64,000 nt of DNA from Escherichia coli (GCF_013122565.1 NZ_CP053258.1), one strand, 5' to 3'; counted from the first letter of the stretch, positions 30,529 to 36,296 are shown. Numbers and translations: made by a program. The notes: generated by a model from the letters alone, not told the origin.

Positions 30529-30600
30529 AATATTATGTTAACAACATGTTTATCACTTGGGGTTGCGATGACGACGAACACGCATTTTAGAGGTGAAGAA

Positions 30601-32286
30601 TTGAAGAAGGTTTGGCTTAACCGTTATCCCGCGGACGTTCCGACGGAGATCAACCCTGACCGTTATCAATCTCTGGTAGATATGTTTGAGCAGTCGGTCG
30701 CGCGCTACGCCGATCAGCCTGCGTTTGTGAATATGGGGGAGGTGATGACCTTCCGCAAGCTGGAAGAACGCAGTCGCGCGTTTGCCGCTTATTTGCAACA
30801 AGGGTTGGGGCTGAAGAAAGGCGATCGCGTTGCGTTGATGATGCCTAACTTATTGCAATATCCGGTGGCGCTGTTTGGCATTTTGCGTGCCGGGATGATC
30901 GTCGTAAACGTTAACCCGTTATATACCCCGCGAGAGCTTGAGCATCAGCTTAACGATAGCGGCGCATCGGCGATTGTTATCGTGTCTAACTTTGCTCACA
31001 CACTGGAAAAAGTGGTTGATAAAACCGCCGTTCAGCACGTAATTCTGACCCGTATGGGCGATCAGCTATCTACGGCAAAAGGCACGGTAGTCAATTTCGT
31101 TGTTAAATACATCAAGCGTCTGGTGCCGAAATACCATCTGCCAGATGCCATTTCATTTCGTAGCGCCCTGCATAACGGCTACCGGATGCAGTACGTCAAA
31201 CCCGAACTGGTGCCGGAAGATTTAGCCTTCCTGCAATACACCGGCGGCACCACAGGTGTGGCTAAAGGCGCGATGCTGACTCACCGCAATATGCTGGCGA
31301 ACCTGGAACAGGTCAACGCCACCTATGGGCCGTTGCTGCATCCAGGTAAAGAACTGGTAGTAACGGCGCTGCCGCTGTATCACATTTTTGCCCTGACCAT
31401 TAACTGCCTGCTGTTTATCGAACTGGGTGGGCAGAACCTGCTTATCACTAACCCGCGTGATATTCCAGGGTTGGTAAAAGAGTTAGCGAAATATCCGTTT
31501 ACCGCTATCACTGGCGTTAACACCTTGTTCAATGCGTTGCTGAACAATAAAGAGTTCCAGCAGCTGGATTTCTCCAGTCTGCATCTTTCCGCAGGCGGAG
31601 GGATGCCTGTTCAGCAAGTGGTGGCAGAACGTTGGGTGAAACTGACCGGACAGTATCTGCTGGAAGGCTATGGCCTGACCGAGTGTGCGCCGCTGGTCAG
31701 CGTTAACCCGTATGATATTGATTATCATAGTGGCAGCATCGGTTTGCCGGTGCCGTCGACGGAAGCCAAACTGGTGGATGATGATGATAATGAAGTACCA
31801 CCGGGTCAACCGGGTGAGCTTTGTGTCAAAGGACCGCAGGTGATGCTGGGTTACTGGCAGCGTCCGGATGCTACAGATGAGATCATCAAAAATGGCTGGT
31901 TACACACCGGCGACATCGCGGTAATGGATGAAGAAGGATTCCTGCGCATTGTCGATCGTAAAAAAGATATGATTCTGGTTTCCGGTTTTAACGTCTATCC
32001 TAACGAGATTGAAGATGTCGTCATGCAGCATCCTGGCGTACAAGAAGTCGCGGCTGTTGGCGTACCTTCCGGCTCCAGTGGTGAAGCGGTAAAAATCTTT
32101 GTAGTGAAAAAAGATCCATCGCTTACCGAAGAGTCACTGGTGACTTTTTGCCGCCGTCAGCTCACGGGCTACAAAGTACCGAAGCTGGTGGAGTTTCGTG
32201 ATGAGTTACCGAAATCTAACGTCGGAAAAATTTTGCGACGAGAATTACGTGACGAAGCGCGCGGCAAAGTGGACAATAAAGCCTGA
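30601..32286 (+). CDS. fadD: Long-chain-fatty-acid-CoA ligase FadD
   Basis: ORF 30535-32286; start trimmed to TTG at 30601 ([23 protein letters not shown]), 561 aa, AMP-binding motifs. Confidence 0.9.
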
Positions 32287-32355: not shown

Positions 32356-33483
32356 TTGAATTACCAAATGATTACCACGGACGATGCGCTGGCTTCTTTG
32401 TGTGAAGCCGTCCGTGCCTTTCCGGCGATAGCCCTGGATACTGAATTTGTTCGTACGCGCACTTATTACCCGCAGCTGGGGTTGATTCAACTTTTCGATG
32501 GCGAGCATCTGGCGCTAATTGATCCTCTCGGGATCACCGACTGGTCACCGCTGAAAGCGATCCTGCGCGATCCGTCCATCACAAAATTTCTCCATGCAGG
32601 CAGTGAAGATCTGGAAGTGTTCCTCAATGTCTTTGGCGAATTACCACAACCCTTGATTGACACGCAAATCCTTGCTGCCTTCTGCGGACGCCCGATGTCA
32701 TGGGGTTTCGCTTCCATGGTGGAAGAGTATTCCGGCGTTACGCTGGACAAGAGTGAATCGCGCACCGACTGGCTGGCCAGACCGCTGACCGAACGTCAGT
32801 GTGAATACGCAGCGGCGGATGTCTGGTATCTGTTACCGATCACCGCCAAGCTTATGGTAGAAACGGAGGCCTCCGGCTGGCTACCTGCGGCGCTGGATGA
32901 ATGCCGCCTGATGCAAATGCGTCGTCAGGAAGTCGTTGCGCCGGAAGATGCCTGGCGTGATATCACCAATGCCTGGCAGTTACGCACACGCCAACTGGCC
33001 TGTCTGCAACTGTTAGCCGACTGGCGACTGCGCAAGGCGCGAGAGCGCGATCTGGCGGTGAACTTTGTCGTGCGTGAAGAGCATTTGTGGTCGGTAGCGC
33101 GTTATATGCCGGGAAGTTTAGGCGAACTGGACAGCCTGGGTTTATCCGGTAGCGAAATCCGCTTTCACGGTAAAACGCTGCTGGCGCTGGTGGAAAAAGC
33201 GCAGACATTGCCGGAAGAGGCCTTACCGCAGCCGATGCTTAACCTGATGGACATGCCGGGTTATCGTAAAGCGTTTAAAGCGATTAAGTCGCTGATTACT
33301 GACGTGAGCGAAACGCACAAGATCAGCGCCGAATTGCTGGCATCGCGTCGGCAAATCAACCAACTGCTGAACTGGCACTGGAAACTGAAACCGCAGCACA
33401 ATTTGCCGGAGCTGATTTCCGGCTGGCGTGGTGAGCTGATGGCGGAAGCATTACACAATTTATTGCAGGAATATCCGCAGTAA
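32356..33483 (+). CDS. rnd: Ribonuclease D
   Basis: 375-aa ORF starting MNYQMITTDDALASLCEAVRAFPAIALDTEFVRTRTYYPQLGLIQ (DEDDy exonuclease plus HRDC). Confidence 0.95.
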   Translation: MNYQMITTDDALASLCEAVRAFPAIALDTEFVRTRTYYPQLGLIQLFDGEHLALIDPLGITDWSPLKAILRDPSITKFLHAGSEDLEVFLNVFGELPQPLIDTQILAAFCGRPMSWGFASMVEEYSGVTLDKSESRTDWLARPLTERQCEYAAADVWYLLPITAKLMVETEASGWLPAALDECRLMQMRRQEVVAPEDAWRDITNAWQLRTRQLACLQLLADWRLRKARERDLAVNFVVREEHLWSVARYMPGSLGELDSLGLSGSEIRFHGKTLLALVEKAQTLPEEALPQPMLNLMDMPGYRKAFKAIKSLITDVSETHKISAELLASRRQINQLLNWHWKLKPQHNLPELISGWRGELMAEALHNLLQEYPQ

Positions 33484-33489
33484 AATCTT

Positions 33490-33532
33490 CCGAAGCCGGA
33501 CTGGGCGCGCTCAGCGCCACATCCGGCTTCGG
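33490..33532. repeat. Compound palindromic hairpin between rnd and the yeaX fragment
   Basis: Outer arms ccgaagccgga / tccggcttcgg enclosing inner stem ggcgc / gcgcc; no clear U-tract on either strand. Confidence 0.45.
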
Positions 33533-33536
33533 CAAA

Positions 33537-33950
33537 CTACAAATCCAACACCAGGCGTTTACCCTTCGCACGCGAACAACAGATCAACATACTTTGCTGG
33601 CTGGCACGCTCTTCATCGCTAAAATACTGATCCCGATGGTCAGCTTCACCTTCCAGTATTGCCGTTTCGCAGGTTCCGCATACCCCTTCACGACATAAAC
33701 ATTCCACTTTCGCGGCTTTATTATTTTCAATAACCTGCAAAATAGTCATCTCTTCCGGCACCACAAACTCTTTTCCGGAACGGGCAAGCACCAGGGTAAA
33801 TGCATCGCCGGTTTTGTCTTCGATAGCAAATTGCTCAAAGTGCAGCGTATCGGCGGCGATGTCCAGACGCGCAGCTTCACTTCTTACCGCTTCAATTAGC
33901 GCCTCGGGGCCACAGGTATAAACGTGTGTGCCAGGTTCGATATCCGCCAT
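33537..33950 (-). pseudogene. yeaX: 3' fragment of yeaX (cntB-like oxidoreductase): end of NAD-binding domain plus plant-type 2Fe-2S ferredoxin domain
   Basis: ORF 33537-34016 (159 aa). From MADIEPGTHVYTCGPEALIEAVRSEAARL onward it looks like the C-terminus of an FNR-type reductase followed by a 2Fe-2S domain (CREGVCGTCE ... LICC). The N-terminal FAD/FMN-binding domain is absent and yeaW/yeaV are not found upstream. Confidence 0.6.
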
Positions 33951-33992
33951 TGACATCCTCCACGTCCTGAAGGACGAGGAGGATGTCAATGG
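33947..33992. repeat. 46-bp near-perfect palindrome at the 5' edge of the yeaX fragment
   Basis: ccattgacatcctccacgtcc-tgaa-ggacgaggaggatgtcaatgg: two 21-nt arms with one mismatch. The minus-strand reading of the left arm gives GGAGG, 6 nt spacer, ATG (the MADIEPG start). Confidence 0.85.
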
Positions 33993-34136
33993 CAGGGTAT
34001 GAGTTGTATATTGCATTTAACGAATTAATTATTTTTGTGTTATATAAATTAAACAATTAAGAATTCGGAAAGCCATAAAACACGAAACGGAAACAATAAA
34101 AGGTGAAATGACGCAGGTTATTAACTGCAAAGAACG

Positions 34137-34165
34137 AATAAAAAAACCGCGTCAGTGACGCGGTT
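34137..34165 (-). terminator. Rho-independent terminator downstream of dmlA
   Basis: Stem aaccgcg / cgcggtt preceded on the plus strand by an A-run, giving a U-run after the hairpin on the minus strand; 20 nt past the dmlA stop. Confidence 0.6.
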
Positions 34166-34184
34166 CAAATAAACTGGTTTGACC

Positions 34185-35270
34185 TTAACGCAAAATAATT
34201 TTGCAAATCGCGTCGGCAACCTGTGGCGTGGTGGCACTGCCTTTCATATCCGGTGTTTTCGGCCCGTGAGCAATCACTTCTTCAATCGCTGCCAGAATAC
34301 CGTTATGCGCTTGCTGGAAACGCTCATCGCCATTGCCGAGAAAATCGAGCATCATTGCACCGGCCCAAATTGTGGCGATAGGGTTAGCAATATTTTTCCC
34401 GTAGATATCCGGCGCGGAACCGTGGACAGGCTCGAAGAGCGACGGGAAAGTGCGTTCCGGATTCAGGTTGGCGGATGGGGCAATGCCAATGGTGCCGGTG
34501 CAGGCCGGGCCAAGATCGGAAAGGATATCGCCAAACAAATTGGACGCCACTACCACATCGAAGCGTTCCGGCTGCATCACAAAACGCGCGCAGAGAATAT
34601 CAATATGCTGCTTGTCCCACCGGATCTCCGGATAATTCTCGGCCATTGCTTCCACTCGCTCATCCCAGTACGGCATGCTGATGGCTAAACCGTTCGATTT
34701 AGTGGCAGAAGTTAGTGTCTTACGTGGGCGGCTTTGCGCAAGTTCGAAGGCATAACGCAAAATGCGATCGACACCACGACGCGTAAATACCGATTCCTGA
34801 ATGACGACTTCATGCTCTGTACCTTCATTCACTCTACCGCCGAGCGAGGAATATTCGCCTTCGGTGTTTTCCCTGACCACGTAAAAATCGATGTCGCCAG
34901 GCTGTTTTCCCGCCAGCGGGCAGGGAACGCCAGGAAAGAGACGAACCGGGCGCAGATTGACGTACTGGTCGAATTCACGACGAAATTTCAGCAGCGAACC
35001 CCACAACGAAATATGGTCCGGAACGGTATCCGGCCAGCCGACGGCACCAAAATAGATGGCGTCGAAACGGCTAAGTTGCTCATGCCAGTCGTCCGGCATC
35101 ATTTTACCGTGATGGCTGTAATACTCGCAGCTCGCCCACTCCATTTGCTCAAAACTCAAGGCGAAGCCCCAGCGCTCAGCGGCAGCCTGTAACACGCGAA
35201 TCCCTTCAGGAAGGACTTCTTTGCCAATCCCGTCTCCCGGGATCGCAGCAATACGCATCGTTTTCATCAT
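34185..35270 (-). CDS. dmlA: D-malate dehydrogenase (decarboxylating) DmlA (YeaU)
   Basis: 361-aa ORF starting MMKTMRIAAIPGDGIGKEVLPEG, isocitrate/isopropylmalate dehydrogenase family. Confidence 0.9.
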   Translation of the reverse strand: MMKTMRIAAIPGDGIGKEVLPEGIRVLQAAAERWGFALSFEQMEWASCEYYSHHGKMMPDDWHEQLSRFDAIYFGAVGWPDTVPDHISLWGSLLKFRREFDQYVNLRPVRLFPGVPCPLAGKQPGDIDFYVVRENTEGEYSSLGGRVNEGTEHEVVIQESVFTRRGVDRILRYAFELAQSRPRKTLTSATKSNGLAISMPYWDERVEAMAENYPEIRWDKQHIDILCARFVMQPERFDVVVASNLFGDILSDLGPACTGTIGIAPSANLNPERTFPSLFEPVHGSAPDIYGKNIANPIATIWAGAMMLDFLGNGDERFQQAHNGILAAIEEVIAHGPKTPDMKGSATTPQVADAICKIILR

Positions 35271-35372
35271 TGGGTTCTCACTTCCTGACCATCAAAATTG
35301 ACAACATCACCATCCTATAATTGACTGAAAAGGAATTAATCCCCGTAACTGGTGAAACATAAAACACGAATC

Positions 35373-36296
35373 ATGAATAATTTACCGCTGCTGAATGATT
35401 TGCGCGTCTTTATGCTGGTGGCTCGCCGGGCTGGTTTTGCCGCCGTGGCGGAAGAACTGGGCGTTTCACCGGCGTTCGTCAGCAAGCGCATCGCCTTGCT
35501 GGAGCAAACGCTAAACGTGGTGTTGTTACACCGCACCACCCGCCGCGTCACCATTACCGAAGAAGGAGAGCGGATTTATGAATGGGCGCAGCGGATTTTG
35601 CAGGATGTCGGTCAGATGATGGACGAACTTTCTGACGTGCGTCAGGTGCCACAGGGGATGCTGCGTATTATCAGCAGCTTTGGTTTTGGACGACAGGTGG
35701 TGGCTCCGGCGTTATCAGCGCTGGCGAAGGCGTATCCGCAACTGGAATTACGTTTTGATGTGGAAGACCGGCTGGTCGATTTGGTCAATGAAGGTGTCGA
35801 TCTCGATATTCGCATTGGCGATGACATCGCCCCTAATTTAATCGCCCGCAAACTGGCGACCAATTACCGCATTCTCTGCGCGTCGCCGGAATTTATTGCG
35901 CAACATGGCGCGCCGAAACATTTAACCGATCTTTCTGCATTGCCGTGCCTGGTCATTAAAGAGCGCGATCATCCTTTTGGTGTCTGGCAATTACGCAATA
36001 AAGAAGGCCACCATGCGATTAAAGTCACCGGCCCACTGTCGTCTAATCATGGAGAAATTGTCCATCAGTGGTGTCTCGATGGGCAGGGGATTGCTCTGCG
36101 CTCCTGGTGGGATGTTAGCGAAAACATTGCCAGTGGTCATTTAGTGCAAGTGCTACCGGAATATTACCAGCCAGCGAACGTCTGGGCCGTTTATGTTTCA
36201 AGGCTGGCGACGTCAGCGAAAGTGCGGATAACGGTAGAATTTTTACGCCAGTATTTTGCCGAGCACTACCCGAATTTTTCACTGGAGCATGCCTGA
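35373..36296 (+). CDS. dmlR: LysR-family regulator DmlR (YeaT)
   Basis: ORF 35352-36296; start trimmed to MNNLPLLNDLRVFMLVARRAGF (307 aa); divergent from dmlA. Confidence 0.85.
   Translation: MNNLPLLNDLRVFMLVARRAGFAAVAEELGVSPAFVSKRIALLEQTLNVVLLHRTTRRVTITEEGERIYEWAQRILQDVGQMMDELSDVRQVPQGMLRIISSFGFGRQVVAPALSALAKAYPQLELRFDVEDRLVDLVNEGVDLDIRIGDDIAPNLIARKLATNYRILCASPEFIAQHGAPKHLTDLSALPCLVIKERDHPFGVWQLRNKEGHHAIKVTGPLSSNHGEIVHQWCLDGQGIALRSWWDVSENIASGHLVQVLPEYYQPANVWAVYVSRLATSAKVRITVEFLRQYFAEHYPNFSLEHA

Follow-up and report, generated by a model that had tools for sequence, protein, structure and literature searches.

How a long, near-perfect palindrome came to lie exactly where the gene yeaX breaks off is the question raised by a locus in the 64,000-nt stretch of Escherichia coli DNA analysed here (GCF_013122565.1, NZ_CP053258.1), which is referred to as the window. 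The genes of this part of the window are arranged in the order fadD (30535-32286, plus strand), rnd (32356-33483, plus strand), a remnant of yeaX (minus strand), dmlA (34185-35270, minus strand) and dmlR (35352-36296, plus strand), and the order in intact E. coli loci is rnd, yeaX, yeaW, yeaV, dmlA. Compared with those intact loci, 3,429 bp are missing: yeaW and yeaV are gone entirely, together with the 5' two-thirds of yeaX and 57 bp of the yeaV leader. What is left of yeaX (33537-33949, minus strand) is the last ~137 codons, which encode the tail of the NAD-binding domain followed by the C-terminal [2Fe-2S] ferredoxin domain. The window can be aligned with yeaX up to 33949 and with the dmlA-yeaV intergenic region again from 33990/33992, and the remaining intergenic DNA (33990-34184, minus strand) includes the dmlA terminator (34144-34166). 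The junction itself was absent from all 5,426 complete E. coli genomes, and a search of metagenomes for either joint, for the allele or for its precursor gave no matches.

The DNA to the right of the junction is not identical to that of other strains. About 11 differences, consisting of substitutions and one 1-nt deletion, are clustered in ~75 nt (33990-34065); the next ~125 nt beyond this cluster show no difference from E. coli references, and neither do the 470 nt on the yeaX/rnd side. This leader allele was found in none of the complete E. coli genomes. The cluster beside the right joint may stem from error-prone repair synthesis or from a patch of imported DNA.

The wider region is variable in the species. 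K-12 MG1655 (L256, NZ_CP025268.1 1887395-1888357; window ~33990-34038) carries its own, different deletion, its yeaV is annotated without the N-terminus, and its homology to other strains begins only at about window position 34038. Given this separate deletion, the 5' end of yeaV and its leader seem to be a place where deletions recur. When window positions 33480-34260 were compared with the 5,426 E. coli genomes, ~1,040 (e.g. ST131) matched only the first ~80 nt, at the rnd end, and ~1,050 were also devoid of the dmlA-proximal part, so that about one complete E. coli genome in five is without the dmlA-yeaVWX region.

The palindrome fills the junction. Its 40-bp core (33950-33989, no strand assigned) reads TTGACATCCT-CCACGTCC-TGAA-GGACGAGG-AGGATGTCAA, and its edges coincide with those of a family of related sequences whose flanks beyond them are unrelated. 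In the window the symmetry runs 4 nt further into both host flanks (GCCA on the left, TGGC on the right), giving an extended palindrome of 48 bp (33946-33993, no strand assigned) with two 23-nt arms (33946-33968 and 33971-33993) that are 96% complementary, with one mismatch and 2 nt between them. The left GCCA is yeaX sequence, and the right TGGC departs from the TTGC of the reference leader at its second base only. Within the 64-kb window, a 16-nt arm pattern is confined to these two places (0.03 matches expected). The original prediction had described a near-perfect palindrome of 46 bp at the point of truncation and had suggested that it may be a deletion scar; the palindrome is slightly longer than that, yeaX homology does stop at the base before the core, and the structure sits exactly at the deletion junction.

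A start signal had also been noticed in the palindrome, and it is indeed there: on the minus strand GGAGG (plus-strand positions 33957-33961) is followed by a 6-nt spacer and an ATG (plus-strand positions 33948-33950) that leads in frame into MADIEPG. This ATG straddles the left joint, the A being the last base of the transposon end described below and the TG coming from yeaX. As single-stranded DNA (60 nt) the region is predicted to fold at -26.2 kcal/mol (z = -11.4 against shuffles), and the minus-strand RNA (131 nt) at -56.7 kcal/mol, again far more stable than shuffles (z = -8.6). The RNA stem buries both the Shine-Dalgarno (SD)-like GGAGG and the ATG, so that the proposed occlusion is borne out by the predicted fold, but no sign was seen that this SD and start codon are used: a simple promoter scan of the minus strand from the dmlA terminator to the junction gave no match, and of YeaX the remnant ORF specifies only the [2Fe-2S] ferredoxin end. 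No evidence for a present function of the palindrome was found. An intrinsic terminator was considered and rejected, there being no T-run on either side and the scan reporting only the dmlA terminator.

Right ends and target sites at the junction

Each arm can be identified by comparison with known elements: it represents the outermost ~30 nt of a right end of the IS200/IS605 family, in which a hairpin precedes a 10-nt linker with TCAA at its end. One copy (33950-33979) is on the minus strand, with the hairpin CCTCGTCC-TTCA-GGACGTGG, the linker AGGATGTCAA and a terminus joined to yeaX (/TGGCGGATATC, the slash here and below marking a joint). The other (33960-33989) is on the plus strand, with the same hairpin, the linker AGGATGTCAA and a terminus joined to the yeaV leader (/TGGCAGGG). 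Both strands of the window thus show an 8-bp hairpin and then AGGATGTCAA, a layout shared by genuine right ends. An element in another locus (L115) ends, directly after its tnpB, in GGAAT-CCCCGCCC-TTTA-GGGCGGGG-AGGATGTCAA/, and the InsQ/TnpB element of a P1-like phage-plasmid (L007) ends in GGAAT-CCACGCCC-GTCA-GGGCGTGG-AGGATGTCAC/. At least 120 right ends of the exact type GGAATCC...GGAGGATGTCAA were found in viral contigs; among the matches listed from these contigs, an ORF of at least 300 aa ends no more than 300 nt upstream in 66 of 131. Among the matches listed, the loop reads TTTA or TTCA in 105 right ends and TAAA or TGAA in 6, and by these statistics of genuine right ends the T-rich loop of the minus-strand copy is in the native hairpin orientation. 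Moreover, the 21-nt string TTCA-GGACGTGG-AGGATGTCA, which covers the minus-strand loop, the 3' stem and the linker through GTCA, matches natural InsQ-type right ends exactly; it stands after InsQ-like tnpB fragments in four contigs, where the terminal A agrees as well.

The geometry of these GGAAT-type right ends matches the description of IS608, in which TCAA lies 10 nt 3' of the foot of the right-end hairpin and the guide bases lie 5' of that foot (PMC3201880). In the solo palindromes treated in the next section the guide bases GGAAT are absent 5' of the hairpin, and ATCCT, the complement of the linker, stands there instead. The InsQ left end (CCAATGTGCC...) is unrelated to the arm. No tnpA or tnpB, no similarity to TnpB and no other right-end-like sequence was detected in the window, and there is no left end at the palindrome, which is therefore not a complete IS200/IS605 insertion sequence. 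A literature search for the arm sequence returned unrelated primers and one Shigella variant call, which is an InsQ right end beside yedK.

The hairpin and linker also form the 3' end of the scaffold region of the TnpB guide RNA in parent elements (omega-RNA; HgcC RF00062, sot0042 RF02656). Unlike such a guide RNA, the window retains only the last ~30 nt of the scaffold and has no TnpB gene nearby, and all Rfam scores are below gathering: parent right ends match weakly to HgcC (E = 6e-5, 29.3 bits against a gathering threshold of 50) and to sot0042 (E = 0.006, 22.8 bits against 88). The window itself gives only spurious miRNA-type hairpin matches, and a known Rfam RNA was rejected as an identity for the palindrome.

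Both joints lie at the same tetranucleotide. At the left joint (33949/33950, minus strand) the coding strand of intact yeaX reads CGCGATTAT/TGGCGG, and at the right joint (33989/33990, plus strand) the intact leader reads GTAATTAT/TTGCAGGG, so that each joint is exactly 3' of TTAT. Accordingly, the lost 3,429 bp begin with ATAA and end with TTAT, and either strand has a right-end terminus joined to the DNA that directly followed TTAT. With 10 TTAT positions on the plus strand and 23 on the minus strand in 3.5 kb, the chance of both joints falling so is ~2e-5. That TTAT is the target of elements with this right-end type is shown by an empty and filled pair of sites in P1-like DNA: the P1 empty site is CGCCTTAT/GCTGCCTC (GCTGCC after the joint), and the filled site of the phage-plasmid is CGCCTTAT/CCAATG...(tnpB)...GGATGTCAC/GCTGCCTC, without duplication. 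For TnpB elements in general, the most frequent motifs are reported to be TCAA for cleavage at the right end and TTAT for the left end or target (PMC9956272). A terminus placed 3' of a tetranucleotide target, with no target-site duplication, is found at both joints of the window.

In hairpin, 10-nt linker, TCAA and TTAT joints without duplication the window thus resembles IS608 and InsQ-TnpB right ends, and its sequence is nearly identical to that of genuine right ends just 3' of tnpB. It differs from single right ends in having two of them, head to head through one hairpin, so that it reads the same on both strands. Both-sided scoring for TTAT applies to the window only; for two prophage copies of the palindrome (L134 and L132) the homology ends before the palindrome or is only ~76% identical. 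A precursor allele with the element still at either TTAT site turned up neither in the 5,426 complete E. coli genomes nor in the metagenome collection.

A dispersed family of 40-bp palindromes

The core belongs to a widespread family. BLAST finds relatives on more than 3,000 plasmid records and ~250 phage records. An exact-pattern scan for TTGACATCCTCC-N14-20-GGAGGATGTCAA, in which the outer 12 nt of each arm are fixed by the pattern, returned 105 stretches in prokaryotic genomes sampled at one per species and 18 in viral contigs, with an estimated chance expectation of ~0.02 for a database of that size. Hosts include haloarchaea, cyanobacteria, Chlamydiae, Actinobacteria, Chloroflexi, Firmicutes and many Proteobacteria, and copies also lie in prophages and plasmids. 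The 40-bp architecture is present in at least 127 copies, whose flanks are unrelated and without base preference, and no target-site duplication was found in 126 of the family copies; it follows from these three properties that the unit is exactly 40 bp long. In about 90% of the copies both edges of the unit coincide exactly with the right-end terminus. Extra flank symmetry of at least 3 nt occurs in 9 of 126 copies (~2 expected), reaching at least 15 nt in one. At L097 (24-63) the symmetry extends at least 15 nt (up to 23 nt, at the contig end) beyond the 40-bp unit, which may be an artefact of assembly or point to a large inverted duplication with the unit at its centre.

Within the unit, the inner six base pairs vary and covary (104 compensatory cells against 31 in shuffles, 0/500), and wobbles in the inner stem are strand-asymmetric (U.G), consistent with constraint at the RNA level. 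Solo palindromes share idiosyncratic, imperfect inner stems with right ends on the same contig, which indicates that they derive from resident elements, and 8 of 10 solos on the same contig as a right end are on its 3' side. Several genomes hold more than one copy with identical inner stems and unrelated flanks (L087-L091, L063-L065), and in one of these loci (L089) a genuine right end with that stem is present as well. A tblastn comparison of InsQ with the family loci found tnpB near few solos, and the unit is therefore not part of an intact element. Neither TTAT before nor ATAA after the unit, as would flank a simple insertion, was seen in any of 129 solos. Likewise, the left end TTGACATCC accompanies on the same strand none of 93 genuine right ends whose upstream sequence is long enough to tell, save for one inverted pair (L233).

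A full-length copy is present in only 116 of the 5,426 E. coli genomes. Other E. coli copies are found at mosaic junctions: after prophage repressor genes beside fragments of toxin-antitoxin or restriction genes, between an integrase and a tailspike gene, and at the boundary between variable and conserved DNA in P1-like plasmids. In the P1-like plasmid pMUB-MIN10-2 (L002, 3647-4040) the stop codon of a DUF1353 gene of the tail-fibre region lies inside the loop of the solo palindrome, and in P1-like plasmids homology switches at this palindrome, the upstream DNA being variable and the downstream DNA (holin) conserved. A diverged full-length copy (82.5% identity to the consensus) is located at the 3' end of ccdB in IncF plasmids (H261, NZ_CP020523.1 25077-25116) and is shared by many plasmids.

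Short palindromic hairpins related to IS200/IS605 ends are also known from REP and REPIN sequences (RAYT, TnpA-REP). These are species-specific, number tens to hundreds per genome and have a conserved GTAG/CTAC-type head, whereas the outer arms of the solo family are near-identical across phyla and there are one or few copies per genome. A REP or ERIC repeat was rejected for the window, the arm occurring there only at the palindrome and full copies being so infrequent in E. coli. An engineered scar was likewise set aside: the sequence belongs to a natural family and its joints are at TTAT, and to our knowledge no FRT, loxP or similar scar matches it.

Formation of the palindrome and competing explanations

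The presence of a right end on each strand calls for two right ends in inverted orientation. The palindrome is probably the scar of two inverted right ends of the enterobacterial InsQ/TnpB type that overlap in a common hairpin, left when two copies of the element collapsed by deletion. One copy would have entered yeaX and another, on the opposite strand, the yeaV leader, both with the right end pointing outward. Since the right-end hairpin is itself palindromic, the hairpins of such an inverted pair would be direct repeats of each other, and repeat-mediated deletion between them would remove both element bodies together with everything in between. The product would be an outer arm in inverse complement, one hairpin and an outer arm, which is the architecture observed.

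A possible intermediate of such a collapse, judged from its arrangement, is the inverted pair at L233. Here the last 300-400 nt of a tnpB element with its right end are present twice, facing outward, in arms of 90% complementarity, and the flanks to which the two right ends are joined differ. A related situation is seen at the fecI locus, where K-12 has a right-end remnant only, while at exactly the same joint with the flank the complete palindrome is found in other strains and on plasmids. The closest precedent comes from IS605-type elements and PATEs of Haloquadratum, in which near-terminal palindromes serve as direct repeats and deletion of the core between them leaves terminal-only remnants of 52 bp (PMC3119063). 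The architecture of the unit and L233 are consistent with a repeat-mediated origin of the palindrome. The likeness to solo LTRs and other recombination scars of transposable elements is that a short, inert remnant stays behind after loss of the body and can outlive the active element; the repeats in the window differ from LTRs in being 20-bp palindromic hairpins of inverted copies, in giving a palindromic product and in the loss of host genes.

Several observations run against two fused right ends. The genomes and metagenomes searched yielded no precursor allele; the 9 copies with extra symmetry are not predicted by fusion; the window has neither tnpA nor tnpB; the ~11 substitutions beside the right joint are unaccounted for; and the right flank, TGGC in place of TTGC, with its 4-nt extension, could be a fold-back copy of the yeaX flank. 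The IS200/IS605 family usually shows a lagging-strand orientation bias, and two insertions on opposite strands 3.4 kb apart run counter to it.

Some of these difficulties would be met if a single element had inserted in yeaX at TTAT and its body and the 3.4 kb had been deleted in one event by fold-back (template-switch) synthesis. In the course of replication or repair, the nascent strand would fold at the right-end hairpin, copy the linker and TGGC, and re-anneal by GC microhomology in the yeaV leader. The run of the palindrome into both flanks, with a right TGGC unlike the reference, the family excess of flank symmetry and the substitution cluster, which error-prone repair synthesis could leave, are all as such a process would have it. 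However, the T-to-G change is one of ~11 local differences, and the position of the leader joint 3' of TTAT becomes a coincidence (10 sites in 3.5 kb, ~0.3%). Fold-back does not predict that ~90% of copies stop exactly at the right-end terminus on both sides, and copying through the stem would yield perfect complements, whereas the solos retain the imperfect stems of their parents. A fold-back origin is considered unlikely.

The transposase might instead be directly responsible, either by mobilising the 40-bp unit, or a larger pair of inverted right ends, as an active element, or in a one-step reaction in which TnpA, bound to the right-end hairpins of both strands, joins each terminus to TTAT and thereby makes deletions and mosaic junctions. 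Both joints do bear the signature of the transposase target, same-stem copies with unrelated flanks recur in several genomes, copies are often at mosaic junctions in prophages and plasmids, and the preference of same-contig solos for the 3' side of the right end would fit. The solos, however, are without the 5' guide bases and the left end, and for IS608 it has been found that removal of the guide abolishes robust complex formation and that target choice needs the left-end guide (PMC3201880). The absence of TTAT/ATAA flanks among the 129 solos argues against this route as well, and repeated collapse in parent-rich genomes (e.g. L089) would give multiple copies equally. Such an activity at this locus is distinctly improbable. 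The broader proposition, that solo palindromes are a regular transposase-driven product or can be mobilised, TnpA, acting on hairpins that fold the same way on both strands, making deletions and the mosaic junctions of phages, plasmids and chromosomes across bacteria and archaea, is judged quite unlikely too, though by a shade less so. If the scars were made by the transposase directly, the formation of deletions would be a new activity for this very abundant family of transposons.

The yeaX flank is reminiscent of a flank in Stx phages: the DNA abutting the 933W right end, (A)TGGCGTATAT, shares 9 of 10 bases with TGGCGGATAT, the flank in yeaX. If solos were a regular TnpA product, this likeness would hint at an extended or RNA-guided choice of site. 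Alternatively, a Stx-type prophage right end together with its flank could have been captured by microhomology between TGGCGGATAT in yeaX and (A)TGGCGTATAT in 933W. Agreement of this degree is expected ~0.02 times, and the 381 distinct right-end flanks have no base preference. On the other hand, the likeness was noticed post hoc, the exact position of the yeaX joint 3' of TTAT would become a matter of chance, the hairpins differ at 2 of 20 nt, and there is no similarity beyond 10 nt. Capture from a prophage is very improbable.

Even less credence is given to the idea, raised by the original prediction, of a local palindrome from yeaX that provoked breakage by SbcCD, or of a hairpin controlling the translation of a truncated YeaX. 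Its appeal lies in the position at the junction and in a very stable stem that buries an SD-like GGAGG and an ATG. For a possible SbcCD substrate the stability computed is thermodynamic, and the 40-bp unit is stably present in many genomes. An origin from local sequence is rejected: the core is absent from intact yeaX, where nothing like it occurs at the corresponding position, and from the leader; it has no chromosomal homolog at the locus and is transposon-end sequence found in many phyla. Placement of both joints exactly 3' of TTAT points to IS200/IS605 TnpA chemistry and away from breakage provoked by a palindrome. As for translational control, the minus strand upstream shows no promoter signal and the remnant is a domain fragment only.

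A terminal-only PATE, produced by fusion of the left and right termini of one element and carried in by ordinary insertion, can be dismissed almost entirely. Gene-free 52-bp elements of this kind, with one near-terminal palindrome kept, do exist in haloarchaea (Dyall-Smith et al. 2011, PMC3119063), and the 40-bp unit makes no target duplication. But they fuse ends of the same strand at an ordinary insertion site, whereas the window unit joins two opposite-strand right ends in a perfect dyad, has no target-motif flank and replaces 3.4 kb of host DNA, not a contiguous site. As genuine elements, L233 apart, have no left end resembling the arm, that of InsQ being unrelated, and as no solo has TTAT/ATAA flanks, the unit is neither a fused left-plus-right terminus nor a simple insertion.

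Altogether, two fused right ends left by a two-copy collapse agree best with both joints and with the family. Because it is without 5' guide bases (GGAAT) and without any left end, the solo unit is most likely immobile and without a role of its own, other than to form a very stable hairpin in any transcript. IS200/IS605 right ends, PATEs and terminal-only remnants are known already; in a limited literature search no description was found of a two-right-end palindrome with transposase-type joints and loss of DNA, or of its wide spread.

Consequences of the deletion and traces elsewhere

The palindrome accounts precisely for the loss of yeaVWX in this genome. For the cell, the consequence is loss of the carnitine transporter/monooxygenase genes (cntAB-type, of the route from carnitine to trimethylamine). 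More generally, the 40-bp signature, TTGACATCCT-hairpin-AGGATGTCAA, marks past activity of IS200/IS605 (TnpA/TnpB) elements after all element genes have gone, and it also marks junctions of deleted or exchanged DNA. Such scars could help to trace the history of TnpB elements and to annotate puzzling palindromes and small spurious ORFs, for example 'ykiE' and L0135 of 933W. In K-12, 'ykiE' (L135 9288-9356, between fecI and IS1F) overlaps a degenerate right-end remnant, GAAAT-CCCCATCC-TTTA-GGGCAGTG-AGGATGTCAA, truncated by IS1F, and the ORF call may be spurious. In Stx phages, the hypothetical ORF L0135 of 933W (L005 2990-3040) is read through an inverted right-end remnant.
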